Origin: a virus
Taxonomy: Duplodnaviria > Caudoviricetes
Length of the DNA: 64,000 nt
IMG/VR virus record: IMGVR_UViG_3300031867_000021
Span: 1-64,000 of that record
Strand: one strand, 5' to 3'
In this document: positions 1 to 64,000 of the stretch, piece by piece
Position numbering within the stretch: the stretch's first letter is position 1
Layout of the letters: each line of letters opens with the position of its first letter
Notes under the pieces: generated by a model
What the model saw: only the letters and a program-made list of their open reading frames with translations
Database searches by the model: none
Told to the model about the DNA's origin: nothing
Made by a program: the position numbers and the translations under genes

Positions 1-442
1 GAGCGTTGTTAAGCTGGCCAATCAGGATGAGGATGCTATTCAGCCAGTCATCATATGGAGCCGGTGGTACACCACCCTCCACCCCGGTCACGGAGGTATT
101 GACCGTCGTCGGGATAACACTGCTCTTTTTCAGCAGCCCGTTGTCCGGATGGTTCAGCGCCCGGATTTCCGTATAGCCCAGCCCCGTATGCGCGGTATCG
201 GAGTCCGTGACCGTCCATGTCAGGATTTTCGTATCCGCGTCGTAGCTCGTATTCGTCGTCAGCGGAACAACCGCGTTATATGGCATGAAAAGCAGATGGA
301 AGACAGGATTGTCATACCCCATCTCGCTCAGTTCTTCCACCCAGGCCGACATGTCGATATTGATCTGGGTCGCGTTGCTCTCGCCCTGCTGACCGATTGT
401 CAGGTACTGAAGCTTCTCGATTTCGTAATCCACCGAAGCCAT
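1..442 (-). CDS. Tail fibre/baseplate upper (BppU-like) protein, N-terminal part, runs off the window
   Basis: Translated by hand (not in the ORF track): MASVDYEIEKLQYLTIGQQGESNATQINID...PPAPYDDWL; open to the window edge; GxxGExxA motif typical of fibre N-termini. Confidence 0.6.
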   Translation of the reverse strand, partial: MASVDYEIEKLQYLTIGQQGESNATQINIDMSAWVEELSEMGYDNPVFHLLFMPYNAVVPLTTNTSYDADTKILTWTVTDSDTAHTGLGYTEIRALNHPDNGLLKKSSVIPTTVNTSVTGVEGGVPPAPYDDWLNSILILIGQLNNA

Positions 443-443
443 A

Positions 444-701
444 TCATCTCACCCTCTTCCATGCATAGATTCCGACCAGGTCGGTAGTTACCTGTTCCCA
501 TTCGCCAAAGGCAAATGGTTTCACAGGCGTTCCGGTTTCACTCGTCCTCACGCTCAGCGCCACGCTCCCGACAGGGTAGGCGCGCTGCCATCTGATCTGT
601 TCAAGCAGGTCGCGCAGGCTGAACGCGAAGCGCCGCTCCTCCTCGCCCCATCTCGTCGGGATCGTCGGAAAGAGGAGACCGTAGTTATTAGGTTTTCTCA
701 T
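444..701 (-). CDS. Small tail protein with a Gp10-C-like YPVG...GxWE...WxRV motif
   Basis: Motif RAYPVGSV...FGEWEQ...YAWKRV; lies within the tail operon. Confidence 0.5.
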   Translation of the reverse strand: MRKPNNYGLLFPTIPTRWGEEERRFAFSLRDLLEQIRWQRAYPVGSVALSVRTSETGTPVKPFAFGEWEQVTTDLVGIYAWKRVR

Positions 702-710
702 AAGTCCTCC

Positions 711-2315
711 TTAGTCCGGATCGAGTTCCAGATCGATCTTGATCCCGCCCGCGATGGTGTATGGCAGGGCGTCATGGCTCCGGATTTCCATCCGGAAAAT
801 CCTACCGTGCGTATTCAGGTTCGTCCGCAGGAGCTTGTTCGGTTTCACCTTGATGCGTTTCTCTTTGAACTTGCGCTCCGTCCGGATGCCCATCCACAGC
901 TCGACAGGAGCCTCGCACTCGACCATCAGGTACACGGTGAATGCACTTTTGATGGAGCTCTTCACGCCTAAGTCCTGGTATCCGGATACCCACTTCACGG
1001 GCATAACCTTACCCTGGGTGTCATCCAGCTCGAACACCTCACCCGGGAAAGCGGCGCTCGTATAGAACAGCCGCTCATTGATCTGCAGGAAGCTCTTCAC
1101 TGTCATCCCCGTCCGCAGGCTGATCGTCCGGTTCCGGGTGTCATACTGAAGAATCGCGTTGCAGTAGGGGCTGTCGTTGATGGGAAGCGCAAGGCAGTAC
1201 ACCCCGTCCCACATCCCTGCACAAACCAGATCGGTCGGGCTTCCAGTCACCTCTTCCCAGTGCTCCGGAGTCCAGGATTCCCCGGCGATGGAGCCGTCTG
1301 GCTGTGCCTCAGCCAGAATCGGAACAATGCACCTGTAAATCGTTTCCTCGTGAGTGCTCAGATCGCCGTAGCTGTAGGATCGATTCTCGGAATATTCCGG
1401 CGCAATGTACTCCCGGCTGAGCTGCTCCCGCATGAGAATCTGGGTTGGCTCCTGCAGAAAAGGATGTGCCCCGCTTCCGTCGTACCGCATCATGCCGTAT
1501 TCACCCATCATGTAGGCGTACTCGCCTTCAACGGCAATCGTGTTCTCCGCGATGGTGCCGCCACCGTACTGCCGCTGGATCGTAAACTCGCCGGGGTTCG
1601 TACCGGAGATACGCCAGATGGAATTGCGCTTGATCGCCAGCAGTGTATTACCGTACTGCTTCAGGCTCAGGAAGCTGTCTCCGTCCCATGTGGGCTGAAG
1701 GATATCCCCGGCTCCGTCCTCCGGGATCTGCGTATTGGCCGACCAGTCAAACGGATCATACGGTGCGCTGTACACCAGCATGTCCGGCTCGTCGGTGATT
1801 CCGCTGCCCCAGATGCGCTCGTTGTACCGGGCCAGCACTCCGAAGTTTTTAGGCGTCGTCACCCTGCCAACTTCCTGCGTATCGCCGTACAGGCAGAACA
1901 TCCCGTCCGTGGCGTTGGTGAAAAGCAGAACGTCCACTGGCTCGGACAGGGAGGCCCCGGCTCGTGTGTTGACTTCGTAGGTCACCCAGTCGCAGTTATC
2001 GTCGGTCAGCCCGCTGTATCTCTGCACCCAGTCGTCGCCGCCGTCCAGCGTCTTGGTGTAAACCTTGCCCCGGCTGATCGCGACCAGCAGTGTTCCCTCC
2101 GTGCCGTATCTGCGGTGCAGGTAGGCGAGGGTGCCGATCGGGTCATGCAGAGTCTGCTCCAGCTTCCGGCCTTCGCGCATAGGTTTGAAGCTCCCGCCTG
2201 AGATATCGACATTCTCCATCTCCCGGGCGAGCTGCATCGACATGTTGTAGCCATCCCCGGTCTGGTTCAGCCCGCCGAAGCTGTTGATGTTGAAGGAGGT
2301 TTGATACTGCGGCAT
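711..2315 (-). CDS. Podovirus-type tail nozzle/tubular protein B-like (stabilisation protein)
   Basis: 534 aa; N-terminal FGGLN motif; beta-rich; follows the capsid and adaptor genes. Confidence 0.65.
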   Translation of the reverse strand: MPQYQTSFNINSFGGLNQTGDGYNMSMQLAREMENVDISGGSFKPMREGRKLEQTLHDPIGTLAYLHRRYGTEGTLLVAISRGKVYTKTLDGGDDWVQRYSGLTDDNCDWVTYEVNTRAGASLSEPVDVLLFTNATDGMFCLYGDTQEVGRVTTPKNFGVLARYNERIWGSGITDEPDMLVYSAPYDPFDWSANTQIPEDGAGDILQPTWDGDSFLSLKQYGNTLLAIKRNSIWRISGTNPGEFTIQRQYGGGTIAENTIAVEGEYAYMMGEYGMMRYDGSGAHPFLQEPTQILMREQLSREYIAPEYSENRSYSYGDLSTHEETIYRCIVPILAEAQPDGSIAGESWTPEHWEEVTGSPTDLVCAGMWDGVYCLALPINDSPYCNAILQYDTRNRTISLRTGMTVKSFLQINERLFYTSAAFPGEVFELDDTQGKVMPVKWVSGYQDLGVKSSIKSAFTVYLMVECEAPVELWMGIRTERKFKEKRIKVKPNKLLRTNLNTHGRIFRMEIRSHDALPYTIAGGIKIDLELDPD

Positions 2316-2327
2316 ACTTCCACCTCC

Positions 2328-2729
2328 TTATGTCGGGATGTTAATGAAATTCTTGTACTGCTTTATGGTTCCATCCGCATTCAGTCCGGAGAGGCCACCT
2401 TCTCCGTTGATCCGGGAGATCACTTCATCGAAGGCCTGTTTGAAGTATAGCCCGCGCTGCTGCTTCTGAGGGTTCCCGTTTCGATAGACCAGCCAGGTGG
2501 CATAGTCTGCCAGCGCCCGGTGAATCCAGTGCGGCACCGCCGGGATGTCCTCGTCATACACCAGCCTCGGGTAGCCTCCCGTCGGAACGTGGCCCTTCGC
2601 CCAGGCCTTGATGATCTTGTCGTACCCCTCGTTGACATAGTCCTCCACATGCGGGAGGTAGTCCTCCAGGTCGTCCGCGTCATTGTTGGTCTGGAACATG
2701 ACCTGCTCCTTGATCTCTTTGAAGGTCAT
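2328..2729 (-). CDS. Head-tail adaptor (tail tubular A-like)
   Basis: MTFKEIK...YVNEGY...P.VP.W.HRALADYA pattern; position in the operon. Confidence 0.55.
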   Translation of the reverse strand: MTFKEIKEQVMFQTNNDADDLEDYLPHVEDYVNEGYDKIIKAWAKGHVPTGGYPRLVYDEDIPAVPHWIHRALADYATWLVYRNGNPQKQQRGLYFKQAFDEVISRINGEGGLSGLNADGTIKQYKNFINIPT

Positions 2730-2740
2730 AGCCTCTCACC

Positions 2741-2986
2741 TCACAGATTCGGATACCGCTGTTTCAGCATGATGTAGACTTCAGGAGTCACATCCACGTA
2801 CTCGCCCCGCTTGATCCGGGTAAAGTCATCGCCCGTCTCGTTGCTGATACTGACGTGTTCATACTGATCCACAGCGACGCCCGTTGCGTCGTCATTCTCC
2901 CGCTTCGGGATGTAGATCCTCACGCGGGTCTCCTCGACCGGCTTTTCCTTTTTTGGTACAGCAATCGTCTGACTGCTCTTAGGCAT
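2741..2986 (-). CDS. Small virion-associated hypothetical protein
   Basis: AAAGGAG RBS before MPKSSQ; IKRGEYVDV motif is common in genes right after capsids. Confidence 0.5.
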   Translation of the reverse strand: MPKSSQTIAVPKKEKPVEETRVRIYIPKRENDDATGVAVDQYEHVSISNETGDDFTRIKRGEYVDVTPEVYIMLKQRYPNL

Positions 2987-3048
2987 AAATATTCTCCTTT
3001 CTAAGAATTGCCCCGGAAGAAACACTCTTCCGGGTCAATCCGTATAAC

Positions 3049-4278
3049 TTAGGCGCTTACACCGTGTTCAACCCGGACGATGAAGTCATCCTGGATAATC
3101 GCGGCGCAGAAGTGTTTTACCTTCCAGGCGATAGTTCCGCGCTGGTTCAGCGGGTCATCAGAGCCAGAAGAACCAGGGGCCTTCACGATGGTCTGGATGT
3201 TCGGGGTACCTCTGCCGCCCAGCTGCACGATGCCGTAGGCGTCGCGGCCATAGATCAGGGTGGCATGCACTTCGTCACCGCTGGAAGCGCCGCCGCTGGG
3301 GACGACCTTCAGAAAGTTCGTGGTAGTCCAGTCCGTAGTGTCGGCGGGCACCCAGCGGAACGTAACGGTCTTCGCCGCAGCGTCCACGTACTCGATGCAC
3401 ATGGGCGTCACATAGTCGGTGCTGGACTTGGTGTACTGCACGTAGACCAGCTTGCCGGTCAGCTCGCGGGCCTCGTCCTCGCTGATCGTATCAGACACGG
3501 TCATGGTACGGGTCGCAGCGTTGAAGGCGGTCGCAGTCAGAGCTGTCTTGGTGCCATACAGATAGGTCTCGTTGGTGAAGATCTTGCCGTTGTCCACTTC
3601 GAAGAACTTGACCTTATAGATAGTGCCGAGCTCATACTTCTGCACCCGGGCATCGCTCTGATACGTTGCCACATCAATCCAGTGCTGATCCTGCGTCAGA
3701 TCAAAGTAGGTGTCGTGGTCGATCTTCGCGTGGTAGTAGCCGTCAGAGAAGGGCTGAGCGCCCGCCTTCTTCAGCTTGCGAACCACGCGCTTAATTACCG
3801 CATAGTTAATAACGTTCGCACTGGTCAGGGCGGCGCGGCTGGTCACGGAGCCGGGATACATGACGTTCAGTCCGGCGCAGATCTCATCACGCACGATGGT
3901 GTCGATGGACAGCCGGGCCTGATTGTTCAGCCGGTCGGACATGGCTTTGGTCATGTTGTCGATATGGAAAAGATCGAATTCATCCGTGTAGGGGATGTAG
4001 CCGCCGTAGGGCTTGGTCATCACGGAGAACTCGGTTTCCTGCAGCTTCTGGCCGTCAGGAGTCACGCCTTCATACAGGGGCTTCGTGATAGCGGGAAGCT
4101 CGGTGAAGCGGTGGAAATGAACGTGCTTGCCGTTGTGCTCAGGCTGCTCGATCATCTGAGCGTCGGAGGCATAGCCCAGGTTGGGCTGCACGTTCTTCAG
4201 CGCCTGCCTCTGGAAATAGTCCTGCAGGGTAGGGCTTACGCCCTGGTCGTAGGAATAGTTCATGTTGGTAATAGGCAT
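3049..4278 (-). CDS. Major capsid protein, N4-gp56 family
   Basis: Motifs LxEGVTPDG, YELGTIY.V.F.E and GSDDPLNQRGTIAWK; RBS AAGGAG. Confidence 0.9.
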   Translation of the reverse strand: MPITNMNYSYDQGVSPTLQDYFQRQALKNVQPNLGYASDAQMIEQPEHNGKHVHFHRFTELPAITKPLYEGVTPDGQKLQETEFSVMTKPYGGYIPYTDEFDLFHIDNMTKAMSDRLNNQARLSIDTIVRDEICAGLNVMYPGSVTSRAALTSANVINYAVIKRVVRKLKKAGAQPFSDGYYHAKIDHDTYFDLTQDQHWIDVATYQSDARVQKYELGTIYKVKFFEVDNGKIFTNETYLYGTKTALTATAFNAATRTMTVSDTISEDEARELTGKLVYVQYTKSSTDYVTPMCIEYVDAAAKTVTFRWVPADTTDWTTTNFLKVVPSGGASSGDEVHATLIYGRDAYGIVQLGGRGTPNIQTIVKAPGSSGSDDPLNQRGTIAWKVKHFCAAIIQDDFIVRVEHGVSA

Positions 4279-4293
4279 TCGTAGCACACTCCT

Positions 4294-5064
4294 TTATACT
4301 TTGAAGCGCGCTCCTTCCTCCAGCCTCTTGTTCAGTCTTTCAAACTGCTCATCCGTCATGGAAGCGATCGTGGATTTCTCCGCGCCGCTCGCGCCGTTGG
4401 AGGAGCGCATCGGAGAGGGTGCCCTTCTTCCGGCCTTCTTCTCGGTGAGATAGTCAGCCACGTCATAGAAGTCCCACTCTCCGCTGATCACTTTGTTCTT
4501 GGTTTCCTGGTTGGAATTGAACTCAGCCAGCACGTCGATCTTCCGTGTACCCATGATCTTGTCGGCCTGATGCTGCAGCATATCAATCCGGGTCTGGATC
4601 GCGGTGTCGTCGTTCTTCCTGGCAAACTGTCCGTTGTCGTTCCGGGGCTGCTCGGGCTTGGCCGCGGGAGTGCTGGCCTGTCCCTGCCCCTGCCGGTAGC
4701 GCACAAGCTCCTTGGCGGTCTCAAGGTCTTTCACCTTGCCGCTCCGCACAAGCTCCTGCGCGTCCTGCTCCATCATTCTTTCCATCAGCGGAGCCAGCTT
4801 CGCGTCGTACTCGGCGCGGATCCTCTGCTCCGTTTCCCGGATGGCCTTGTCCACCGCCGCCCCGACCCGCTTCTTAATCCATCCGGGTTCACTGTTCCCG
4901 GAGGCTTCTGCCGGATTCGCCGGTTCGCTTTCGGTCTGCTGGGGTGCCTCGTCCATCACGGAGTCCAAAGTTTCCGATGCATCGTGTTCCTCGGTGACAG
5001 GAGCCTCAAGCTGGACGTCGTCTCCAGCAGCCTCTGCCTGAATGTTCTCGACCATTTCTTCCAT
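4294..5064 (-). CDS. Capsid scaffolding protein
   Basis: Acidic coiled coil with RNDNGQFA and MTDEQFERL motifs; directly upstream of the capsid gene. Confidence 0.7.
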   Translation of the reverse strand: MEEMVENIQAEAAGDDVQLEAPVTEEHDASETLDSVMDEAPQQTESEPANPAEASGNSEPGWIKKRVGAAVDKAIRETEQRIRAEYDAKLAPLMERMMEQDAQELVRSGKVKDLETAKELVRYRQGQGQASTPAAKPEQPRNDNGQFARKNDDTAIQTRIDMLQHQADKIMGTRKIDVLAEFNSNQETKNKVISGEWDFYDVADYLTEKKAGRRAPSPMRSSNGASGAEKSTIASMTDEQFERLNKRLEEGARFKV

Positions 5065-5154
5065 GGAAAAAATTCTCCTTTCATCCGGCGCGAAAACGCT
5101 GTCCCGGGTGTATATGCAAAAGCCCTGCGAAAACGCGGGGCCGATTGCCGGTGA

Positions 5155-5370
5155 TTATTTCTTCAAGTCCTGTATTTCGTGCTGAACCTCGCTCATCTGG
5201 CCTTCCAGTATGTAGGTTCTTTCAATCACGCTATTATGCTTGTCAACCTTGCTCTCAAGCTGTTTCAGCCTGTATTCCATCAGCGCCTATGACCGCCGAT
5301 TACTCAGGTAAGTGCCGATCAAAGCACACCCTGCTGTGATCAGGCTCCCTGCGATTGCCGTCCATTCCAT
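5155..5370 (-). pseudogene. Holin/XhlA-like membrane protein interrupted by an in-frame TAG (5287-5289)
   Basis: Hand translation MEWTAIAGSLITAGCALIGTYLSNRRS*ALMEYRLKQLESKVDKHNSVIERTY...; one TM segment plus a coiled coil. Confidence 0.65.
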
Positions 5371-5373
5371 CGG

Positions 5374-6081
5374 TTACACCTCCTTGTTCTTTAAGAATTT
5401 GGTCATGATGTAACCATCAGCGGCGTACCGGACACGTGCCCAGTCGCCCTCGATCTCGAGCACCTCACATTCCTCGCCCTCGCGGAGGACGCCAAGCTTC
5501 GTGCTCTGAACGGTCGCCCCTTTCCGGATGTTCACTGTGCCGTCATTCGGCACGTCCACGTAGGCCTTTCCAGGTTTCAATCCGATCACCTCGTCTCTTT
5601 TGTCGGAGTAGCCGATCCCCCGGATCAGCCCGTAGTGCGACCATTCGGACAGGGAAGAGGAGACGACGCCCGCCTGGGTGCCCTTCGCCTCGACCACCTG
5701 ATTGTTCCCGACGTAGATCCCCACGTGGTAGAAGTCCGTCCCGTTCCGCAGCTTGAACACAAGCGCCCCGGCAGGGACGGAGTTTCCAGGAATCGCGCCC
5801 TTCTCGAACAGCGCGTCCCTCCACTGGGAATTGCTTCCGTGTGCTACGGAGACCCCGCACTTCTTGCACAGGTACTTGACAAGCCCGGAACAGTCAGCCA
5901 CGTAGTGGCCGACCCACTTCCGTCCGTACCTCCGTGCCTGCTCGTACTTTTTGTCGGTCGTCTTGTCCATCTCGTTCTGCATCTCTGCAGTCCATTTGAC
6001 CCCGGCTCGGCCAAAGATATAGCCCCACTTTTTCTGGAGGATCTCCCTGGCCATCTTCGCCAGGTCTTCGCCCATGTACAT
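5374..6081 (-). CDS. Endolysin, NlpC/P60 peptidase plus SH3b
   Basis: DCSGL (catalytic Cys), YHVGIY (His), C-terminal VNIRKG...DWARV SH3b; RBS AAGGAGG. Confidence 0.85.
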   Translation of the reverse strand: MYMGEDLAKMAREILQKKWGYIFGRAGVKWTAEMQNEMDKTTDKKYEQARRYGRKWVGHYVADCSGLVKYLCKKCGVSVAHGSNSQWRDALFEKGAIPGNSVPAGALVFKLRNGTDFYHVGIYVGNNQVVEAKGTQAGVVSSSLSEWSHYGLIRGIGYSDKRDEVIGLKPGKAYVDVPNDGTVNIRKGATVQSTKLGVLREGEECEVLEIEGDWARVRYAADGYIMTKFLKNKEV

Positions 6082-6094
6082 GGTCATCACCTCC

Positions 6095-8008
6095 TTATGT
6101 CGGGAGCGGAGCCCCGGTCTGCACCCCAAGGGTGTTCCTCGCGGCGTCCACCACAGCATTGGCGCTGTCTGGAGACTGGAGCATGCTGGTGGCTCCGACG
6201 GTGCCCGGGCTCTCGCCGGGCGCGGGAGCGCCGCCGCCCCGCTGCCGGTTTCCGACAGTGGCCAGCGTGTTGCTCATCTCAGCGGTCGTCTTCCGCAGGC
6301 TCGCGTTCTCAGCCCGCATCTGTTCCATCTGCTGGCCCATCTGCTCAACCTGCTGCTGGAGCTGCTGCATCTGCTCCTGGTAGTGCTCGTTCGCCTCGAT
6401 GACGGGGAGAATCTTATCCTTGCCGTCAAGGTTCAGAATCCTGAACAGAGCGCTGACGGGGAAGAACTGCTGTGCCTGTGCCGCCATATTGTAGGCTTCG
6501 ACGAACATCTGGTTCTGGTTGGCGATGCGCTGAGGATCCCTGCTGGATACTTCGATCTGCACGGTATAGGGAGGAGGGTTGACCACGCCCTTGCTCTTCT
6601 TCCCGAACAGCTTCTTCGTATCGACCTTGACCGGGAGCTTCCGGCCTGTGATCATGACGACCCTGTCGTCATCATAGAACTGGGCCATCAGCCAGATGAT
6701 CTGCTCGACGATCTGCTTGAACCCGTACTTCAACTGTTCCGTCCGCATGGAAGCAATCTTGCCGCCCGCCTGGATCAGGCTGTTGATGGCCTTGCCGGAG
6801 ACGATGCCGCCCGTGGTCTCGCCACGGGTGAACTGATTCGCGCCGGAGTCGGCTTTCAGGTCGCTCTGAAGCATCGTCATCAGCTGAACAATGGTCGTGC
6901 CGAAGGGCTGGTTCTGTAGCCACTGCAGATTGTCCGGCGTGATGTTGTCGCCCTCGATGATATCGTTCTCCCAGTTGGCCAGCGCTTCCTTATCGATGCC
7001 GGAACCGTTCCGGATCAGCAGCCTTCCCTTGGAGCTCATCCTGGCGTTCATGTCCGCGTAGCTCATGTACCGGTTGATATACCGCATCATGGGGACAAGC
7101 TCATGCACAAGCCCTTCGCCCGCCAGGCTTCCTTCGACGCTGTCGTGAACATCCACAACGAAAGGATACATACCATGTGTATACACATCCTTCTGCTTCT
7201 CAAGCAGCGCCCCGCCAGCGGCGTAGGCGACGTTCACGGTGTATCTCCGGGTGGAAGCGTTGTACTCTCTCCACCAGTATTCAATCATCAGCGCCCGCTT
7301 CTCGTCGCTGACATGCTCGGCATCCTCCTGCCCTGCGGTCATGCCCACGTCGGCGTGGGTACCGTCCTCAGAAGTGACGTACTTGCCTTCTTCCGGATAG
7401 TGATCCCGGAACCAGGATAGCGGTCTCCATCCAACCTTCATGACGGCCCTGCAGTCCTGCAGGTTGTCAGCGGTCGGATCCCAAAGGAAGGCCTCCAGCG
7501 GCCAGCGCACCAGCGCGATCTCGCCCCTGCCATAGTTCGCATCCTGATCCCACGCCACCTGGGTGATCGCCGTGCCCGGGCCGTAGAAGTCCTCACACCT
7601 GCGATAGTGGAGCTGCTCAAAATTATTCGCACAGTACACCACGTAGTGCACCATGTCCTGCAGGTCGTCGGCGGCATCCTGCGCGTCCACGGTCTCCGGC
7701 ATAAGCTTCGCCTCCGGCATGGAGAGCATCTGATCAGCCACGACGTTATTGATCGTGGACTTCAGTGTCTGCATCTGCAGGGTTTTCTTTCCCTTGTTCT
7801 GATTGATGGTTATGGCTGTGTCCTGTTCCGGGTCGTCCATATGCAGGATACGCCGGGACTCCTTCGCCGCGTCGTGGTACGGCCTGTTCATCTCCTCGAA
7901 AATGTCCAGCCGGTCATAGATCGTTTCCAGCAGCTCCTTATCCTCCTCGGACAGGGGCTGTTCCTCCAGATATTCTTCCGTCAGGGCCTCGCGCTCTTTA
8001 TCCGTCAT
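6095..8008 (-). CDS. Portal protein (podovirus/P22-like)
   Basis: 637 aa after terL; YPFV, SGxAI and Q-rich coiled-coil C-terminus typical of podovirus portals. Confidence 0.8.
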   Translation of the reverse strand: MTDKEREALTEEYLEEQPLSEEDKELLETIYDRLDIFEEMNRPYHDAAKESRRILHMDDPEQDTAITINQNKGKKTLQMQTLKSTINNVVADQMLSMPEAKLMPETVDAQDAADDLQDMVHYVVYCANNFEQLHYRRCEDFYGPGTAITQVAWDQDANYGRGEIALVRWPLEAFLWDPTADNLQDCRAVMKVGWRPLSWFRDHYPEEGKYVTSEDGTHADVGMTAGQEDAEHVSDEKRALMIEYWWREYNASTRRYTVNVAYAAGGALLEKQKDVYTHGMYPFVVDVHDSVEGSLAGEGLVHELVPMMRYINRYMSYADMNARMSSKGRLLIRNGSGIDKEALANWENDIIEGDNITPDNLQWLQNQPFGTTIVQLMTMLQSDLKADSGANQFTRGETTGGIVSGKAINSLIQAGGKIASMRTEQLKYGFKQIVEQIIWLMAQFYDDDRVVMITGRKLPVKVDTKKLFGKKSKGVVNPPPYTVQIEVSSRDPQRIANQNQMFVEAYNMAAQAQQFFPVSALFRILNLDGKDKILPVIEANEHYQEQMQQLQQQVEQMGQQMEQMRAENASLRKTTAEMSNTLATVGNRQRGGGAPAPGESPGTVGATSMLQSPDSANAVVDAARNTLGVQTGAPLPT

Positions 8009-8270
8009 GCCTGCTCACCTCTTTCCCCTCACACTTCCAGCCAAACGTCGGGCCAAGCGGATGCTTGTCCGTGTGAAGAATGAACTGCAGGGTATCTATG
8101 TTCAGCTCCACCTCAGTGCCAGTGCTCTGAATCTGCTTTACAAGAACCGGGAAAACCTGAGCCACATCTGAAAGCAGCTCCTGATCGTTCTTTGTGTTCA
8201 GCACAACATAGGCCCCATACAGAGAAGTCTCTGGAAAAGGCCGAGCACGGAGGCAGAAATCCGTCGACAT
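7998..8270 (-). CDS. Hypothetical protein
   Basis: RBS GGAGG; overlaps the portal start. Confidence 0.45.
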   Translation of the reverse strand: MSTDFCLRARPFPETSLYGAYVVLNTKNDQELLSDVAQVFPVLVKQIQSTGTEVELNIDTLQFILHTDKHPLGPTFGWKCEGKEVSRHDG

Positions 8271-8362
8271 AAAGGGATTCCTCCTTTTTCTTTTATTTTT
8301 TTATATGCACGCACAAACAGAGGGGGAGCTTGTTCAGCATCACCGTGCTCGGTCTTGCTTTC

Positions 8363-9772
8363 TCAATCTATATCAAACGGGCTGAACGGCTTATACACCT
8401 GCGGCGGCTTCTTCGTCGGCGTCAGCGGGTGCGCCATGAGCACGTATCTTGTCTCGTCGTAGATATGATCCTCAGCGTCCGTGTCGATATCCTCCGGTTT
8501 CGTCTCGCTGTAGGGGAGCGTGGAGACCGTCCGGATGAAATCCTTGCAGGTCGAGAACACCTGCAGCTTTGGCCGCCCGTGCTCATCGAACCTCAGCCGC
8601 TCATGCATCTGCATCTTGCCTGCGATCCGGGCGTTATCGCCCTTGTCAAACACCACGCCCTGCCGCCGCCCGTAGAACCCGGGAGCCATCTGATCCGCGA
8701 CGGAGTCGCCCCGGCTCTTGTCGAAGATGGCCGGGTCAGCCACCCGGAGAACCTTGATGTTGTCCCTGATCTCCGGAGCCTCCCGCTCCAGGATGCCCTC
8801 AGCGATCTGCGCGGGCGTCAGCTCGATGCCGACGTTCGCCTGCCGGGGTTTGCACCCGTACCATTCCTTGTACCGGTACAGGCAGCCGTCAGGGCCCATG
8901 GCGAACCACCCGCAGGAGAAGGGCTTCGAGTACCCATGGTCGAACCCAAAGTACCGCGGCCAGTCCGCAGGAATATCGAAGGGCTCGATCACGTGCGTCC
9001 ACAGCCGGTCTTTGTAGTGCGCCGGATCATCCTTCCACTCCTTGAACACCTGTCCCTCGAAGGAATCCCAGTCGCCGTTTAGCAGCGCCCGCCTGAGCGC
9101 TTCCGGCTTCTGCTCCAGCTCGAAGATGTAGTCGTCCGTGATGTACGGGTTCTCTGTCGCCAGGGAGGGGATGTACTGGGTCTTAATCTTCTTCGTCTTG
9201 TGCAGGGTCTCGGAATAGACCTCCTGTGTCCGTATCTCCATGTATGGCCCTGCGTCCACGAACAGCTTCTTCACCCATCCGTGCCCGATGTTTCCGGGGT
9301 TGCTCGCGCTCTTCACAATCGGGACGCACCCCAGACTGCGCTTTGCGCGGAGACGGGTCTTCAGGAAATCGTAGACCACCTGCTCGAAGGTCGTGAGCTC
9401 ATCAAAATACATGTGCTGCGCTTCAAGTCCCGAATATCTAAAACGGTCAGCGGCGTTCTCACAGTGACGGAAGAGAATTTTGCTGCCGTTGACCAGTCTG
9501 TATTCATGCCTCCCGGCATTGTACGTGGCAATGCTTTCCGGATAGCTCGACTGAGCTTCCTTGATATCCGTATCCTCCAGCTCCTGATAGGTTCGCCGGA
9601 AAATGACCGCTACCGTGTTCGGCCACTTCAGGCACCTGAACAGCGCATCCATGATCAGGGCCTTGGTCTTGCCGCCTCCCGCGGCCCCGCCATAGAGGAT
9701 CTCGTTCGCCGGGGAAGCGTGAAACATAGCCTGCTTTTTTGTAGGCTGATAATTGATCACGCAGGTTGGCAT
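8363..9772 (-). CDS. terL: Terminase large subunit
   Basis: Walker A GGAAGGGKT, Walker B YFDELT, ASNPG motif, nuclease residues FDHGY and EDHIYDETRY. Confidence 0.95.
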   Translation of the reverse strand: MPTCVINYQPTKKQAMFHASPANEILYGGAAGGGKTKALIMDALFRCLKWPNTVAVIFRRTYQELEDTDIKEAQSSYPESIATYNAGRHEYRLVNGSKILFRHCENAADRFRYSGLEAQHMYFDELTTFEQVVYDFLKTRLRAKRSLGCVPIVKSASNPGNIGHGWVKKLFVDAGPYMEIRTQEVYSETLHKTKKIKTQYIPSLATENPYITDDYIFELEQKPEALRRALLNGDWDSFEGQVFKEWKDDPAHYKDRLWTHVIEPFDIPADWPRYFGFDHGYSKPFSCGWFAMGPDGCLYRYKEWYGCKPRQANVGIELTPAQIAEGILEREAPEIRDNIKVLRVADPAIFDKSRGDSVADQMAPGFYGRRQGVVFDKGDNARIAGKMQMHERLRFDEHGRPKLQVFSTCKDFIRTVSTLPYSETKPEDIDTDAEDHIYDETRYVLMAHPLTPTKKPPQVYKPFSPFDID

Positions 9773-10182
9773 GGTGTACTCCCGTCAAACCCCGGGGAAT
9801 GGTATAACGCCCGGAGCACGTTATAAATTTTTTTCTTTAGGAGGGGTCTGTCGTGGTATCGGGGTGCTGAGGTTATATACGGCCCGCTTACCAGAGCGCG
9901 GAGTCCCTGGCACGATTCAGCCCCCCGGGGTCTGATCGGGGTACCCCCACCCCCACCTTGGCGGGGGGAGGGGGGTGGCTTTACCTATATTTTCCGGCTG
10001 GGGCTGGTGGCTGGGGCCGGGCTTTGGCCTCTCGCTACTGCATAACCAGACCAATCAGCAATGCATAAAGCTGTGAATACTCATAGCTTTATGCTGCATA
10101 AATGCCTGAAAATAACATGGCAAGTAATATCTGGTCAGAAACAAATACCAGAATAAACAGAAACAGGCGAAAATACCTGTTT

Positions 10183-10218
10183 CAACTATTCGTAAAACTA
10201 TGCTTTTACGAATAGTTG
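10183..10218. repeat. Perfect 15-bp inverted repeat with a 6-bp spacer
   Basis: CAACTATTCGTAAAA-ctatgc-TTTTACGAATAGTTG. Confidence 0.9.
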
Positions 10219-10247
10219 CCAGCTTCCGGTCAGGGGCTCATACCAGA

Positions 10248-10661: not shown

Positions 10662-10852
10662 TGTCTCGCCTCCTTTCAGCCGGACGTCGGGCACCCCCGG
10701 AGGGGTGTCTCATGCTCTAACGTTTATGTAATGGGTGTAAAAAAGAAGAGCAACCATAGAATACGCTCTAAGGTTGCTCCTGGTTAGATTTACCTCTAAT
10801 CCACCGATTGCATTATACCCCAAATCATGTGGTTTGTGTAGGCCTTAAATTT

Positions 10853-13153: not shown

Positions 13154-13183
13154 CGTCTAAGCCTCCCGGTCGAAAAAAGGTCT

Positions 13184-13279: not shown

Positions 13280-13304
13280 TATCTGTACATCTAAGCACAT
13301 CGTG

Positions 13305-16058: not shown

Positions 16059-16064
16059 CCCACT

Positions 16065-55008: not shown

Positions 55009-55019
55009 TTCAATTCACC

Positions 55020-55247
55020 TCAATTCTTTGCCGCGTCCATACTCCGCTTTTCGTTCTCATGCTGGACGTTTAATAGTTCAATCGCGTCCCACAGGTCATC
55101 CAGATTGTAGGTTCCGTCCCACAGCTCATGCTGCTTCCACATTCCGGCGGCTACGGGAGCGAAAAGTGTCTCATCTATGTTTTCGGCTCTTGCCGGGAGC
55201 CAATTTTGCGGCCGAGGAGAGAAGTCAAGCCGCTTTCTTCGAAAAAA
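55020..55247 (-). CDS. Tail assembly chaperone T segment (-1 frame)
   Basis: LWDGTY.LDDL motif; reached by a -1 shift at T TTT TTC (55241-55247). Confidence 0.7.
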   Translation of the reverse strand, partial: FFRRKRLDFSPRPQNWLPARAENIDETLFAPVAAGMWKQHELWDGTYNLDDLWDAIELLNVQHENEKRSMDAAKN

Positions 55248-55666
55248 TCGGAACAATTCAGCGCGACAACCTCATAAACCAGCCGCAGGCAGGCCATGAC
55301 GTTATACTCCAGCTCCTCCACCCCGAAATTTCCCCTCTCGTCCACAACCTGCTGATACCCGGCCGGAAGAGACATCTGCACCGTCTTCAGGCACAGGATG
55401 GTCAGCTTTTTCAGCTCTTCCTGCGACAGAGAAGCGAACATTTCAGGCAGCTGATTCGCAATCATATTGATATTGACAGTGAAGTTGTCTTTTTCCTCGT
55501 CCTCATTCTCAACGTTGAACTTGACCGCCGCCTGCAGCAGCGGCATCACCTTTTCCGAAACGACCTTCAGCAGGTACATTCCGTCATAGGCATTCATTTT
55601 CTTGATGTAGAACTTCCTAAGTTCCCCATCCACTTCAAACTCCACGTTTTTGGTGATTTCACGCAT
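55175..55666 (-). CDS. Tail assembly chaperone
   Basis: Between the tube and tape measure genes; contains N..DFF at the slippery site. Confidence 0.75.
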   Translation of the reverse strand: MREITKNVEFEVDGELRKFYIKKMNAYDGMYLLKVVSEKVMPLLQAAVKFNVENEDEEKDNFTVNINMIANQLPEMFASLSQEELKKLTILCLKTVQMSLPAGYQQVVDERGNFGVEELEYNVMACLRLVYEVVALNCSDFFEESGLTSLLGRKIGSRQEPKT

Positions 55667-55702
55667 GGTTTTGCCTCCTGTTTGATGGATCTCGACAGAA
55701 AA

Positions 55703-55740
55703 GCATCCGGCCGGGAGTTTGATTCCCGGCCGGATACTGG
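55703..55740. terminator. Hairpin after the tail tube gene
   Basis: ATCCGGCCGGGA-gtttgat-TCCCGGCCGGAT. Confidence 0.55.
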
Positions 55741-55755
55741 TGTGGTGATAAAAAT

Positions 55756-56190
55756 TTAGGTCTCGCTGATTTCCGCTGCCAGGAACGTATAGTTCCGGGT
55801 GGAGGAAGTCTGGTCGTAGTTCTCATCGGGCCACTTCTGCGGGGTCAGACCAACCAGAGTTGTGACTTTGCCACCCGCCGGGTCATTCAGCGTCATCTTG
55901 GTCAGCGCGAAACGATCCGTCGCCGCCGTGGTCAGATACTTGATGAGCTTGCGCAGATACTTATCCGCGGGAGAATTCTGCGGCAGCTCCAGAGCCACAG
56001 AGCCGTTCACGCTCCGCAGCTTATTCACGACTACATAGCCCGTGGCCGTCACAGTGTGGGAAGACAGGTCGCCCTGACGGGTAATCACCACCCGGCCGCC
56101 GCCTTCCTCGGAAATGACACACTGACCCACGTTGGGGTTGTTGATGGTCACTACGACATCCGCAAGGGAATATACAGAGAATTTATCCAT
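55756..56190 (-). CDS. Tail tube protein (DUF3277-like)
   Basis: YS..DV...G.V.L.L.QNSP; follows the sheath gene. Confidence 0.75.
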   Translation of the reverse strand: MDKFSVYSLADVVVTINNPNVGQCVISEEGGGRVVITRQGDLSSHTVTATGYVVVNKLRSVNGSVALELPQNSPADKYLRKLIKYLTTAATDRFALTKMTLNDPAGGKVTTLVGLTPQKWPDENYDQTSSTRNYTFLAAEISET

Positions 56191-56204
56191 CCTGTCTCAC
56201 CTCC

Positions 56205-57299
56205 TTATTCCTGAACAGTCACATTGATCTCAATGGACTCGACAGAACCGCAGAAGCAGATCGCAACCTGAATCGGCATACCCTTCCGGGCGCGGCGGTT
56301 CGTTTCAGACTGATTGTCGAAGCTGTCCGCATACAGCGAATAACCCTTTTCCAGGGCATCCCCGGTCGCGATATTGCCGAAGGAGGCTCCACGCCAGATC
56401 CCGGGCTGAATATACCCGGCAGCCACGAAATTTTCCAGAACGCCGGTGATGACAGACATGAACCGGGTGGAGGTTGTGTCATTCTGCGGCAGTTTCCGCT
56501 CGCTGCTGCGCATAAGTGCCAGACAGGCTTCCTGAATTTCGGCGCTGAGCCGGTCCAGAGCGATGACTTCGTCCACGCGCAGAGAGCTTGCGGTCGCACC
56601 GAACTCCAGCATCGTGTGAGAATACCCGCGCACGACATAGACGCTGCAGTTGGCCCCGTGAAGGGTATCCACTTCGGCCTGCGTCAGCGTCGCGGGAGTC
56701 AGTCCGTTGACTTCCTTATACGCGAGCTGCCATGTGGTATCCGCATACTGAGAAGCACAGCCCATGGCCTCGCCCATGACCGCAGCAGCCTCGTTCGCGG
56801 CCGCGCTGTAATGGACATGAGTCCGGCGGCTGAGCCTGGAATCCAGCGTAGACAGAAGCCCGGAGGAAACCACGGTCGCCACGGCTCCGGTCACAGTCGC
56901 GAACTGCATACCGCGATTGATGGTATTCAGATACTCATCGATATCGCCCTGCTGCGCGGCGCTCGCGCCGTCCCAGTAAACGCCATACCACTCATTGCGA
57001 ACATTCCGAATCGCATCCAGAGCGGCGGAAACGCTTTCGCCCTCGCCGGCAGCACCGATAACCAGCATCGCCGGAGTGGGAGTCACGCCGAAATACTTCT
57101 GAGCCGCCAGATAAACACTGCTCGTTGCCGCAAAGTCTTCAGCGACCTTGGCCAGACTTTCATAAGCTTTGGCCCGAATTGCCGTCGTAAACGTCTCCGT
57201 CGCGGCGGTCACAATCAGTCCCACATCATAGTTGGAAGAAGAAGCTGTGGCCGCGGTAACGGATACGTTTACCTTTACTACAGGATCAAGTGTAAGCAT
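56205..57299 (-). CDS. Tail sheath protein (DUF3383-like)
   Basis: VV.VNV; A.KYF...P; PGIW.G...L.KGY; Q...R.ARK. Confidence 0.85.
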   Translation of the reverse strand: MLTLDPVVKVNVSVTAATASSSNYDVGLIVTAATETFTTAIRAKAYESLAKVAEDFAATSSVYLAAQKYFGVTPTPAMLVIGAAGEGESVSAALDAIRNVRNEWYGVYWDGASAAQQGDIDEYLNTINRGMQFATVTGAVATVVSSGLLSTLDSRLSRRTHVHYSAAANEAAAVMGEAMGCASQYADTTWQLAYKEVNGLTPATLTQAEVDTLHGANCSVYVVRGYSHTMLEFGATASSLRVDEVIALDRLSAEIQEACLALMRSSERKLPQNDTTSTRFMSVITGVLENFVAAGYIQPGIWRGASFGNIATGDALEKGYSLYADSFDNQSETNRRARKGMPIQVAICFCGSVESIEINVTVQE

Positions 57300-59878: not shown

Positions 59879-60841
59879 TTAGATACCGTCGGCGTAACGG
59901 ACGGTCGTGGGATAAACGAACTGAACCTCGGAGAACTGAGACACGAAGGGCGTATGGAAGCCCATGTTGTGGATCTCAGTCTGCAGGCGCTGCAGCGGGA
60001 CAGACTGGGTGAACCGCACCCGGTCTTCCTCGTTGATATAGCCGACCATGCGGTCGGTATTGCCGGCGCCGATACCCTTGCACCACTTGCTGGGCGAAAT
60101 CACCAGATTGCCGCCCTGCTGATTGGTCAGGTTGTTCTCAAGGATATAGGTCAGGATAGACCGCTCGGAGTCGCTGGAAACCTTCCGGGTCACCAGAGCG
60201 CCGAACTGCTCAACGGGAACCAGAATATGGTTCGGCAGAGCATCGGAAGCGCAGTCGTTGGCCGTCCAGATGGCCGCCAGCAGATCGTTGACATCCGCCA
60301 GGATTTCATCAGCGGTCTTGGTCGCCCAGGTCGCGGTGCCGCCGGCGCCATTCGCCACGGTGCTGCGAACGATCGCGGCATTGTTCAGCAGACCGGTCGT
60401 GTTCGCCTTGCCGAAGCCGACATACACGTTGCGGTCGATGGTCTTATCCAGATGAAGCCGGATACCCTTGTTCATGGTGTCCTCAAGGTTCAGGGCCAGC
60501 TTGCGGAACTTCTGCTGCTCGACATAGCCGATCCGCATGTATTCCTGGAAGTTGAACACCTTGCTGACATCCTTATTGAAGTCAGCCTGCATGACCGGGA
60601 TATCATTGCCGTTCTCCACGAACAGGGCATCATCCTCGCCGCCAGTGGAGGCATAGCTGACATCGATCACAGATACATTCTCGACAAAGCCGCCGCCGGT
60701 GCGGACAGGCATGTCACGGGGCCAGTCTACGCCGGCCAGAGGCTCCATAATCTTGGGATCCAGAAGCTCAAGCTGTTTCTGGAGGAAGGCATAGGAGTCA
60801 GAAACAAAGCGCTTGGAGCGCAGGTTTGCAGTTTTCGTCAT
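59879..60841 (-). CDS. Major capsid protein (DUF2184 family)
   Basis: QLE.LDP.I.EPL...WPRD.P...GLLN...W..KT..EIL.DVN...YP...Y.DGI. Confidence 0.88.
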   Translation of the reverse strand: MTKTANLRSKRFVSDSYAFLQKQLELLDPKIMEPLAGVDWPRDMPVRTGGGFVENVSVIDVSYASTGGEDDALFVENGNDIPVMQADFNKDVSKVFNFQEYMRIGYVEQQKFRKLALNLEDTMNKGIRLHLDKTIDRNVYVGFGKANTTGLLNNAAIVRSTVANGAGGTATWATKTADEILADVNDLLAAIWTANDCASDALPNHILVPVEQFGALVTRKVSSDSERSILTYILENNLTNQQGGNLVISPSKWCKGIGAGNTDRMVGYINEEDRVRFTQSVPLQRLQTEIHNMGFHTPFVSQFSEVQFVYPTTVRYADGI

Positions 60842-60861
60842 TGCTCAATCACCCTCTCTTA

Positions 60862-61332
60862 TTACTGAATGTTCCGGTTAGTGATAACGATTTCAGCGAC
60901 GCCATTCGCGCCAACAGCCGCGCGGAACTTGCAGTTGGTCAGCTCGGTGTTGTCCGTGGAAACCGCGGAGAACTTGCCGTTGGAATCCAGATACACCTTG
61001 CCGCCGACCACGGGAGTGCCGCTCTCGACCTTCACGCAGACAGACCCGCGAACGATGATGGACATGATTTCGCTGTTGCCGTACGCGGCTTCACTTGAGC
61101 CATAGGTTTCGGGGGTCTTGACGCCGATCCGGGTCGCCACACCAAGGAAGGTCGCCATTCCGGCGCCAGAGGCGTATCCGACAGCGCCCTTGTTGGCCGC
61201 ATCCAGGAAAACAGGCGCGCCGAACGGGATGGCATTATTTCCGACATTGGTCATGGAGATGACAATGTCGTCAACGCTCCGGGAAATCGCACCGGGGAAG
61301 GTGTTGATGAAAGTAGACTGTACTTTACCCAT
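60862..61332 (-). CDS. Head decoration/cement protein
   Basis: PG.ISRS...I.FG.PV...RGSV.V; lies between scaffold and capsid genes. Confidence 0.65.
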   Translation of the reverse strand: MGKVQSTFINTFPGAISRSVDDIVISMTNVGNNAIPFGAPVFLDAANKGAVGYASGAGMATFLGVATRIGVKTPETYGSSEAAYGNSEIMSIIVRGSVCVKVESGTPVVGGKVYLDSNGKFSAVSTDNTELTNCKFRAAVGANGVAEIVITNRNIQ

Positions 61333-61365
61333 TTAGATCACTACTCCTTCTTAATCGTCGTCGAA

Positions 61366-62775
61366 TTACTTCTTGTAATTCGCATTGCGGGCAGCCATGA
61401 TCCGCTTGCCCAGATCGGCTTCAGCCTTCCGCTGAGCAGCAGCCTTGTCAGAAGCCTTCTTGCGCTGCTTCAGGGCCAGATAATCATTCCGCTTGGCCTT
61501 AGCGGTCATGCCGCAGCTCTTCCGAATGGAAGCGGCAGCAGCATCGGCAGCAGCCTTGCGCTCGGAGGGAGGCAGCTTGGCAATCAGAGGTTTCACCGCC
61601 TTGACGGCAGCACGCATCGCATCACGGGCACGCTTGTCGGTCACGGGGGCGGTTTTGTTCTCGGCCGCCAGAGCCTCTTCCTCGTCCTCATCCTCTTCGT
61701 TGATTTCTTCGGGATCAACGAAATGGGATTCGGGCTCTTCGGGATCCTCGTCGGGAGCAACCAGCTCTTCCTCGTCGGGATCGGCTTCCTCGTCGGCGTC
61801 GGTTTCGGCCTCTTCGGTCTTTTCCTCGCCCTCGGCCAGTTCGTCCTCCAGCTTCTGCAGAGGATCCTCTTCTGGAGCTTCGTCCAGCAGCTGCTTCGCC
61901 ACCAGCTTCTCCAGCAGACTGATCACCTTGTCCAGCTTGTCCTCATCCACAGCGGGCTTCGCGGCGGGATCCTGAGCTTCCTCTTCATCCTCATCCTCAT
62001 CCTCTTCGGTAGCCGCCTTCTGGGTGGGCATCTTCTGCAGCAGATCGGTGATGGTGTCCAGCTTCTCGGTCACTTCCGCGTCCATCGCCTTCGGCTCTTC
62101 CTTCTCGGGCTCAGAAACGATCTCATCAATCGCCTCTACCGCCTCGGCAACTTCTTCGGGCTCAGCGTCCTTCGCAAAGGAAGCCAGCATCTTAGCCAGG
62201 ATTCCATGTTTGTTCTTGCGCATTCTGTGATTTCTCCTTTCGTTGTTTGGGGCAGAGTCTTTTATGCAAACGCGGTGACCGGCTCGCCCTTTGTCCACAA
62301 TGGCGATATGGTTACCACGGATTTGCCGTTGAACCAGCTTTCCGTCTTCCTCGCAAAGCTCGTAGTTGTATCCGCAGGAAATCTCCCGCTTTCCGTCCAG
62401 AACCTTCTGGATGGTGTCAGGGTCGGTGATGAACAGATCGGCAATCAGCATGTTCTTTTCATCCCCGGTTCCCCGGTGAACATTCTGCACATGCCCGCGA
62501 GAAAGCCATTTGGCATTCTCGGCGGTTACACCCTCATCACCGTCCGGGTGGTCATCCGTGACCGGCAGTCCCTCGAATGAGGCCATCGTCGTTTCAGAGA
62601 AAACCTCTTCCTCCGGGCGATATACGGTGACCATCTCGTCCCCGTCCTGATCCACCTCTTCCGGCAGATACTTTTGCGTTCCTGACCGCGCAATCGGAAC
62701 ATTCACGCAGATGAGATAGCCTTCCGGCTCTCGCTTGCGGATGTTGTCAGATATCCGAGTCGCGTAGTACAGCAT
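61366..62775 (-). CDS. DUF2213 prohead protease/scaffold
   Basis: EGYLIC..VPIAR.G.Q.Y; SFEG.PVT.DHP; EISCGY; NHIAIV..GRAG; acidic scaffold C-terminus. Confidence 0.88.
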   Translation of the reverse strand: MLYYATRISDNIRKREPEGYLICVNVPIARSGTQKYLPEEVDQDGDEMVTVYRPEEEVFSETTMASFEGLPVTDDHPDGDEGVTAENAKWLSRGHVQNVHRGTGDEKNMLIADLFITDPDTIQKVLDGKREISCGYNYELCEEDGKLVQRQIRGNHIAIVDKGRAGHRVCIKDSAPNNERRNHRMRKNKHGILAKMLASFAKDAEPEEVAEAVEAIDEIVSEPEKEEPKAMDAEVTEKLDTITDLLQKMPTQKAATEEDEDEDEEEAQDPAAKPAVDEDKLDKVISLLEKLVAKQLLDEAPEEDPLQKLEDELAEGEEKTEEAETDADEEADPDEEELVAPDEDPEEPESHFVDPEEINEEDEDEEEALAAENKTAPVTDKRARDAMRAAVKAVKPLIAKLPPSERKAAADAAAASIRKSCGMTAKAKRNDYLALKQRKKASDKAAAQRKAEADLGKRIMAARNANYKK

Positions 62776-62800
62776 TTGCATCACCTTCCTTTCTGGCCAC

Positions 62801-62839
62801 AATAAAAGCGCGCCGGTTAAATTCCGGTGCGCTTTATTC
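62801..62839. terminator. Bidirectional terminator-like hairpin
   Basis: AATAAAAGCGCGCCGG-ttaaatt-CCGGTGCGCTTTATT. Confidence 0.65.
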
Positions 62840-62873
62840 CTGTGTATAATCTTAATGGAGTCCTGTTTTTGCT

Positions 62874-63311
62874 TTATTCGCCATCTACATCCATCAGGAA
62901 GTACAACGCCCTGTTGTACTTTGCCTGACGTCTCACGTCCCGCTCCGTGACTTCAGCAAAGCGGGCCAGATTGCTGTTATCAATCAGGTCGGATATCTTG
63001 ACCGCCCGAGCGATCGGATTCCTTTTGACCCGACACAGATAATCAGACCACATTTCACCCTTCCGATGCGTCAAAGCATCAACCGCATCTGCTATTTCGG
63101 CCCCGAATCCATCTCTGATTTCGTCAAGAGATACTTCCGTGTCCTCGACAACATCGTGCAGCCACCCGACAATCTTTTCCTCAGGATTTTTCAGCCTCTC
63201 CGCAACCCTTGCCGGATGGTTGATATACGGTTTCCCGGCCTTGTCGACCGCCCCGGCGTGAACCTTCCTTGCCAAAGCCTCGGCACCATCCAGAAGCTCA
63301 ACGCAGCCCAT
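62874..63311 (-). CDS. HD-domain alarmone hydrolase (Mesh1/SAH-like; Aph1-type candidate)
   Basis: H....DKAG.PY..HP..VA...LHDVVEDT...VK..D..DN. Confidence 0.85.
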   Translation of the reverse strand: MGCVELLDGAEALARKVHAGAVDKAGKPYINHPARVAERLKNPEEKIVGWLHDVVEDTEVSLDEIRDGFGAEIADAVDALTHRKGEMWSDYLCRVKRNPIARAVKISDLIDNSNLARFAEVTERDVRRQAKYNRALYFLMDVDGE

Positions 63312-63317
63312 CCTGCA

Positions 63318-63569
63318 TCAACCTTTCTTTTCGGCCTTTTTGTAGACATCCCGGATCTTTTCCATCCAGTATTCCACATCTTCCTCTGGAACGTCGTCGT
63401 ACCACGTCCAGTCTCCGTTCCCTTCAGCAATACTGTCCTTTACCGGAGTGCGTTCCCATTCTCCCGGAACATCCGGCCGGAAAGTATAGCATTTTCCGCC
63501 GTCAAACCGGATCAACGTCATAAATCCATTGCTTTTGTTGATCATGTAGACATAATCAGTCTTTGCCAT
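63318..63569 (-). CDS. Small putative immunity protein
   Basis: Between the toxin domain and the HD hydrolase; RBS GAGGAGG. Confidence 0.5.
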   Translation of the reverse strand: MAKTDYVYMINKSNGFMTLIRFDGGKCYTFRPDVPGEWERTPVKDSIAEGNGDWTWYDDVPEEDVEYWMEKIRDVYKKAEKKG

Positions 63570-63612
63570 CGATTCCGCCCTCCTCTCCGGGCCCTCTTCC
63601 GGGCCCATATAC

Positions 63613-63641
63613 ATTATAACCTATTTTATAATTCCTGTCAC
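63613..63641 (-). promoter_or_regulatory. Internal promoter for the immunity genes
   Basis: GTGACA-17 bp-TATAAT just after the toxin stop codon. Confidence 0.6.
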
Positions 63642-63649
63642 CTGCTTTT

Positions 63650-64000
63650 TCAGGGGAAATTCTTAATTCTTTCAATGTTTCTGGGCCTTTTTAAACCTGA
63701 CATATTATTATACATAATATTGCCAAGCTCGTCCTTCCGCTTCTGTGCCGTTTCCGGCTTTCTCTGCTCTTCGTACTGAGGATGCTGCACTTCCTTGCCG
63801 ACCAAGCTCTCCGGCGTATGGAACTGAAGCTCGAATCTCGTGCCGGTCGGTGATTCGAATACGCAGTTAACACCACGATAAGCTTTTTTGATGGAATAAC
63901 TGTCCCACGTATTCTTGACTTTTACGGTTTTGTACCCCTTGGCTTCGAGCGCCTTTTGAGTCTTCTCGAAATGCTCCACCAGATTGTCAGTCGTACATGC
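63650..64000 (-). CDS. C-terminal RelA/SpoT-like nucleotidyltransferase toxin domain, probably of a MuF minor head protein (partial)
   Basis: KVKNTW...YRGVN......G..FELQFHTPES; open to the window edge; located just upstream of the head genes. Confidence 0.75.
   Translation of the reverse strand, partial: ACTTDNLVEHFEKTQKALEAKGYKTVKVKNTWDSYSIKKAYRGVNCVFESPTGTRFELQFHTPESLVGKEVQHPQYEEQRKPETAQKRKDELGNIMYNNMSGLKRPRNIERIKNFP

Follow-up and report, generated by a model that had tools for sequence, protein, structure and literature searches.

Two virion-morphogenesis modules on a 107.6-kb virus contig: a very probable assembly chimera of a podovirus-like phage fragment and a complete myovirus circle

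The DNA analysed here (the window) is the first 64,000 nucleotides (nt) of the single-contig IMG/VR virus record IMGVR_UViG_3300031867_000021 (Duplodnaviria; Caudoviricetes), which has 107,602 bp in all. IMG/VR lists the record as linear with a CheckV completeness of 100, and the minus strand carries nearly all of its genes. We found that the contig is very probably an assembly chimera, in which a fragment of a podovirus-like phage of about 46 kb was stitched onto the complete circle of a myovirus of about 88 kb. The first-pass annotation described two morphogenesis sets, both on the minus strand, each with its own NlpC/P60 lysin and with no host DNA between them, and proposed that two genomes are joined at about 15.8–19 kb through an array of mini-genes. 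Our Pfam and PHROGs assignments agreed with this description, placing the podovirus-like set at 1–16 kb and the myovirus set at 40–64 kb, with NlpC/P60+SH3 proteins at 5374–6159 and 35674–36627. No host genes were recognised between the two sets, where not every open reading frame (ORF) was annotated, and the join was narrowed to 16,908–16,936. The co-linear arrangement of two virion modules as a biological feature of one phage is not real.

The contig re-enters sequence that it has already used. Self-blastn indicated that its right end, 105,168–107,602 (2,435 bp), repeats 16,908–19,342 at 100% identity, as expected for a path that runs through a cycle of an assembly graph. The length of the record is accounted for by a tail of 16,907, a unit of 88,260 and a re-entry of 2,435, which add up to 107,602. 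On the left side of this identity the copies part ways: one comes after podovirus-side sequence and the other after the sequence at 105.0–105.17 kb. The contig's own two ends share no sequence. A 34-nt pattern from the circle side was absent from the metagenome contigs of the Joint Genome Institute (JGI) and from IMG/VR, and the closure of the circle was not re-found there.

A second assembly holds the two parts on different contigs. Exact-protein look-ups led to an 88,008-bp contig in ENA (ERZ27256863), which has the recombinase, a mini-gene of 98 amino acids (aa), the integrase and their neighbours as in this record and lacks 1–16,907. One end of this contig corresponds to window position 16,908, 137 nt beyond the 98-aa gene, and the other to about 105,308, equivalent to 17,048, with the two ends overlapping by 141 nt. 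Such an overlap would be expected where an assembler working with k = 141 outputs a looped contig. The remaining length (88,008 − 141 = 87,867) equals 88,260 − 393, the 393 bp being the length of one unit of the fibre gene's tandem repeat. In ERZ27256863, the podovirus-type genes are on a separate contig of 15,663 bp, which corresponds to window 1,134–16,796. Exact look-ups of the primase and of MmeI gave no match, probably due to a difference in start codon.

Beyond the join, the podovirus-like phage has a continuation of its own. The 81-aa gene at 16547–16792 is also found on a 7.5-kb ENA contig (ERZ27256908) and on a 5.3-kb JGI contig (L006), and in both the primase is followed by genes of 71, 156, 81, 100, 106, 186 and 116 aa. 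The ERZ27256908 contig then goes on with DNA_pol_A (657 aa), Sequestin, an Enc34-type single-stranded DNA-binding protein of the DUF2815 family and a 271-aa protein. Window 13,008–16,936 is matched by L006 at 99.7% identity, and further on L006 has only a 193-nt patch in common with 17,166–17,357. The same 71-, 156- and 81-aa mini-genes come after the primase in three independent assemblies. Each part was therefore found alone, with a different continuation, in other assemblies. At the other side of the fragment, contig L007 matches window 1–9,010 at 99.6% identity and reaches 933 bp past the first base of the window, so the left end of the record is merely an assembly break.

Related genomes were searched in IMG/VR through the podovirus portal (53 related loci) and through the myovirus terminase. 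The longest or full-length contigs among the portal relatives were 41.7–46.6 kb, and none was near 100 kb. Two of them, G002 (46,635 bp) and G003 (45,879 bp), carry terminal repeats (107 and 127 nt, respectively) and have a CheckV completeness of 100. Every sizeable gene in 711–15,839 has a collinear homologue in both, mostly at 60–93% protein identity; exceptions are the 534-aa virion protein, at 34% in G002, and three other genes with lower values in one or both genomes. Beyond 15,839, the only matches to G002 and G003 were two weak ones in mini-genes and one to a lysin at the level of a domain, with nothing else at 17.4–105 kb. The first-pass annotation had advised aligning each half to related phages to locate the break in synteny, and in this comparison the homology to complete genomes of about 46 kb ends after the primase and mini-genes. 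When both halves were compared by megablast with 50,697 phage records, no match was returned.

The gene content of these relatives also suggests what the fragment has lost. Family A polymerase is present in four of the five podovirus-type genomes, and G002 carries DUF2800 and a 4,409-aa ORF, as well as a fibre that includes an S74 chaperone domain. It had been noted from the sequence that family A polymerase, DUF2800 and DUF2815 are missing beside the primase, SNF2 and VRR-NUC block, and this absence extends across the whole 107.6-kb record, where no family A polymerase was found anywhere. Because these genes occur in the native context or in the relatives and are absent from the record, the replication block is cut by the join. 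Integrase-family genes occur in four of the five podovirus-type genomes, so that the family is probably temperate. The 4,409-aa ORF of G002 (C1:24130-37359, L141:4130-17359, minus strand) has no Pfam match and may be a giant virion protein; its region is missing from the contig of the window.

Complete relatives carrying both modules were not found. The DUF2184 capsid was absent from all five podovirus-type genomes in a search that finds the capsid in this record as positive control, and the podovirus portal was absent from five complete genomes of 50–55 kb that share the myovirus large terminase (TerL), though these are only weak relatives. The latter have only the terminase and a few genes in common with the myovirus, and the myovirus sheath protein had no close relative in IMG/VR. 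As the myovirus relatives are too weak, the genome size rests on the ENA circle and the self-overlap. The 50–55-kb terminase relatives, with only few genes in common, give no genome size, and the idea that the 88-kb circle might itself be composite was dropped. The tetranucleotide composition gives modest support to two genomes: the two halves of the 16,907-bp tail correlate with each other at r = 0.80 and with segments of the circle at an average of 0.57–0.65, and the circle segments correlate with one another at an average of 0.76–0.87.

The join lies inside a mini-gene of 87 aa (16785–17048, minus strand), which was delimited by translations and alignment. The podovirus context supplies its C-terminal half, and the myovirus circle its N-terminal half. 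At both junctions, the passage is in frame within a mini-gene, and the two products are alike in the N-terminal half up to LKEQEAVEP and different after it. The join point itself is a 29-nt joint at 16,908–16,936, which is bounded by the start of the right-end identity and the end of the L006 identity and which corresponds to the LKEQ motif of the mini-genes. This stretch is the sole sequence common to the native podovirus contig L006 and the myovirus circle. It holds the recurring motif CTGCTCTTTCAGCA, which occurs 10 times in the record and is also present in G002, L005 and L006. The join is thus located in sequence that both genomes have, and arrays of three phage types contain copies of the motif. 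The exact junction product was found on one contig only, that of this record, among 5.8 billion protein clusters; an exact look-up of the protein returned nothing, and a 66-nt pattern spanning the join was absent from IMG/VR, so that the join was not replicated. Full-length homologues at 73–78% identity exist, and the junction protein belongs to a family of at least 199 proteins, of which many match one half only.

The mini-gene arrays show a modular structure. Mini-gene halves swap at two short joints, namely LKEQ in the middle of the gene and GQAVKW with the start of the next gene at gene ends, and the exchange regions are at window 15843–19700, at 104634–107602 of the genome, and in L005 and L006. 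The halves are 96–100% identical across the podovirus-like phage, the myovirus and a third phage, with differing orders. The third phage, L005, has another terminase type (PF03354) and carries four of the same modules, reordered, at 96–98% identity. As L005 is unrelated, modules of such identity are natural links in an assembly graph.

We propose that the contig originated from a lollipop-shaped path. The assembler would have begun in the fragment of the podovirus-like temperate phage (1–16,907), crossed into the second phage at a short module present in both mini-gene arrays, made one full round of the circular myovirus assembly (16,908–105,167) and stopped after the 2,435-bp re-entry. The crossing may have happened in two ways. 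In one, the source podovirus strain truly carries the junction gene and shares the stretch right of 16,908, and the assembler would have taken the wrong exit, that of the myovirus; it is plausible that a strain of this kind exists. In the other, a scaffolding link would have been closed across the 29-nt joint. It has been reported that repeats and mosaic unitigs give chimeric phage contigs (Phables, PMC10104058), and the authors of CheckV placed chimeras outside what CheckV detects (PMC8116208). The self-overlap, the separate contigs, the native continuation and the limits of collinearity are direct observations, and we infer that the join arose during assembly.

Several points weigh against an origin of the join in assembly. 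The case for a chimera is built on contig sequences. The 29 nt shared with the native podovirus contig, which comes from another sample, are too short for the joining that is expected of an assembler at large k; in the source sample, either such a junction is probably present in real DNA or the stretch in common is longer. The junction gene also resembles a natural gene, given its full-length homologues. Moreover, the break in the ENA circle falls precisely at 16,908 and implies some alternative left neighbour of this position in ERZ27256863 too, and the ENA assembly may not come from an independent sample. As the circle breaks at this very position, some residual doubt is kept, and there is a small but appreciable chance that the junction could be a real minority molecule.

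Misassembly was nevertheless the best supported of the four options offered by the first-pass annotation. The native podovirus contigs diverge from the record at 16,936, and the myovirus circle starts at 16,908. A true recombinant, that is a hybrid or cointegrate in which the podovirus arm became physically joined to a myovirus genome or concatemer in co-infected cells, through recombination of the two mini-gene arrays at the 29-nt joint, seems improbable. It would agree with the joint being a recurrent exchange point at which modules were swapped among three phage types, with an in-frame junction gene that has full-length homologues, with the co-occurrence of both phages in one sample and with the exact place at which the ENA circle is broken. 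After 105,167, however, the contig goes on as myovirus (= 16,937–19,342) and not with the right arm of the podovirus, and since the closed-circle junction is present in the contig, a simple cointegrate is not what the contig shows. The podovirus part is also about 30 kb short, PolA included, the junction product is in no other contig, and 105 kb is more than twice the genomes of about 46 kb in the podovirus family. It is similarly doubtful, and we would give it little credence, that podovirus- and myovirus-type phages of the same host recombined at this joint and that the contig represents a hybrid or a replication-stage molecule with both modules.

The other two options, tandem prophages and a dual-capsid element, were not supported. 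Two temperate phages integrated side by side in a bacterial chromosome are very unlikely, even if the record has two tyrosine recombinases (38827–39816 and genome 97178–98320), a CI-type repressor, an IS110 transposase and an MmeI restriction-modification gene, and the podovirus relatives carry integrase-family genes too. No host gene was recognised in the annotated parts of the 107.6 kb (not every ORF was annotated), and the nearest recombinase is 22 kb away from the border, which falls within a mini-gene. In the closed 88-kb contig, the recombinase at 38.8 kb is flanked on either side by the same neighbours as here, the podovirus is cut in mid-genome before PolA, and the myovirus closes on itself. 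Self-blastn gave only three repeat pairs in the record, none of which frames either element as attachment (att) repeats would; short att cores were not separately searched. An initial reading as tandem prophages bordered by the two recombinases was rejected given the self-overlap and the ENA circle. That the record is a single genuine phage of about 105 kb encoding two virion types is hardly credible. Its genes are continuous and co-oriented and the CheckV completeness in IMG/VR is 100, but each half is found alone elsewhere, the contig overlaps itself internally, no related genome has both sets, and the two parts differ in composition.

The podovirus-like part (1–16907, minus strand) represents about 37% of a probably temperate phage genome of about 46 kb, as assigned from Pfam, PHROGs and the collinearity with relatives. 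It contains genes for a virion protein, an adaptor-like protein, the capsid, an NlpC/P60 protein, the portal, TerL, SNF2, VRR-NUC and a D5 primase, together with three native mini-genes, and the features described below are all on the minus strand. A weak match to the SU10 adaptor was found at 2328–2729 by Pfam/PHROGs. The major capsid (head) protein is at 3049–4287 (PF25209, 8e-7; phrog_1357, 1e-52), with 91–93% identity in G002 and G003. The P22/SU10-type portal is encoded at 6095–8008 (PF16510, 1e-35), and the large terminase at 8363–9772 (Terminase_3, Terminase_6N), with an identical protein on the separate 15.7-kb ENA contig. The SNF2 helicase is at 11256–12623 (Pfam/PHROGs), and the D5-type primase-helicase at 13305–15839 (D5_N, DUF5906), which shows 82–83% identity in G002 and G003, is the last large gene of the fragment. 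Sequence searches of the PDB gave no match for either the podovirus capsid or the virion protein of 534 aa, and the earlier labels "N4 gp56" and "tubular tail" are unconfirmed.

The NlpC/P60+SH3 protein of this part (5374–6159, Pfam/PHROGs) is encoded between the portal and the gene in the scaffold position, and homologues at 70–72% identity occur at the same place in G002 and G003. Its position suggests a virion-associated cell-wall hydrolase and not the endolysin of a lysis cassette.

The rest of the window (16908–64000, minus strand) is the first 47 kb of the myovirus, which runs to genome position 105167 and closes on 16908, with the same gene order in the 88,008-bp ENA contig. Besides the mini-gene array, this region includes genes for anti-restriction and regulation, the lysis cassette, a recombinase, and the modules for tail and head. 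The lysis cassette (35269–36627, minus strand) consists of a holin at 35269–35604 and an NlpC/P60+SH3 endolysin at 35674–36627, according to Pfam and to Phage_holin_6_1 on the identical ENA gene. The tail module (40108–57299, minus strand) was assigned by Pfam and by the Pfam labels of the identical ENA genes, and comprises the fibre at 40108–42804, a DUF2612 wedge at 44102–45070, Baseplate J at 45073–46275, a tape-measure-sized protein of 1115 aa at 51661–55008 (Pfam scan) and a DUF3383 sheath-type protein at 56205–57299. It is followed by the head genes (59879–62802, minus strand; Pfam), which are the DUF2184 capsid at 59879–60841 (1.6e-67) and DUF2213 at 61366–62802; PF09950 was matched once in the record. 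Beyond the window, the myovirus portal, MuF and terminase are at 72.5–79.2 kb, and the further genes encode toxin-domain proteins, C5 methylase, ParB-N, ThyX and RecT, the portal being a 1136-aa protein. A CI-type repressor, the integrase (genome 97,178–98,320), MmeI and the IS110 transposase are also located there. Because the second module continues with a portal, a terminase and other genes past the window, this set belongs to a self-complete phage. Judged by its gene content, it is a temperate myovirus with its own predicted terminase, portal, capsid, tail, lysis, replication and lysogeny genes.

The tyrosine recombinase at 38827–39816 (plus strand; PF00589, 2e-38) is located beside the tail-fibre gene and has the same neighbours on either side in ENA and Logan contigs. 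It is internal to the myovirus genome and marks no prophage border. Logan contig L004 (SRR35404893) is 98.2% identical to 36580–39897 and then diverges (window 39897; L004:3321-3678), just past this recombinase, with a small RHH gene in the place of the 3′ end of the fibre gene of this genome.

The fibre gene contains a 393-bp tandem duplication (99.5% identical) at 41447–42243. The fibre is 898 aa here and 761 aa in the matching ENA contig, which is exactly one 393-bp unit short, and either the fibre truly varies in length or one of the two assemblies collapsed the repeat. In the myovirus accessory arm, an intergenic repeat of 70–90 nt was found in four copies (26811–26902, 30954–31025, 34087–34178 and 34857–34928), two of which are 91–96% identical. 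Each copy has a GC-rich, stem-like start and then an AT-rich stretch, and the four repeats may be terminator–promoter units.

The nearest cultured capsid relatives of the 1–16.9 kb part are the Bacillus phages Page, Pony, Pookie and Palmer (~40 kb), with the capsids of Page and Pony at about 35% identity. They have a P22/SU10-type portal, as in the fragment, and are classed as podoviruses. They are distant, however, and the true family is made up of uncultured genomes of about 44–47 kb with PolA, DUF2800 and the 4,409-aa ORF. For the second module, the best capsid match was among the Agathobaculum phages AB434P2 and AB434P3 (~44–45 kb) and other DUF2184-capsid phages, at 39% identity. The features expected of a myovirus are present in this record, including a sheath-type protein, baseplate genes and a MuF-type head protein. 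Unlike AB434P2 and AB434P3, this genome is about 88 kb; its toxin array, extended portal and 25-kb accessory arm are further differences, and IMG/VR has no close structural relative of it.

The record resembles known artefacts of metagenomic assembly, such as overlong contigs and repeated genomes (PMC8116208), in that it is longer than any relative and a part of it is traversed twice. As in the artefacts described for Phables (PMC10104058), two genomes are linked through a shared unitig-like module. It differs from a simple concatemer in that it combines a fragment of one phage with the full circle of another.

Taken together, the finding is biologically ordinary, as it concerns two separate temperate phages with one virion module each. 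It matters mainly as quality control, since an IMG/VR record given as 100% complete consists of 37% of one phage, 100% of another and a 2.4-kb re-entry. The true genome of the myovirus with the toxin array, the extended portal and the fibre cassette is about 88 kb (16,908–105,167) and not 108 kb. The mini-gene modules that are 96–100% identical across three phages are evidence of recent exchange among co-infecting phages.

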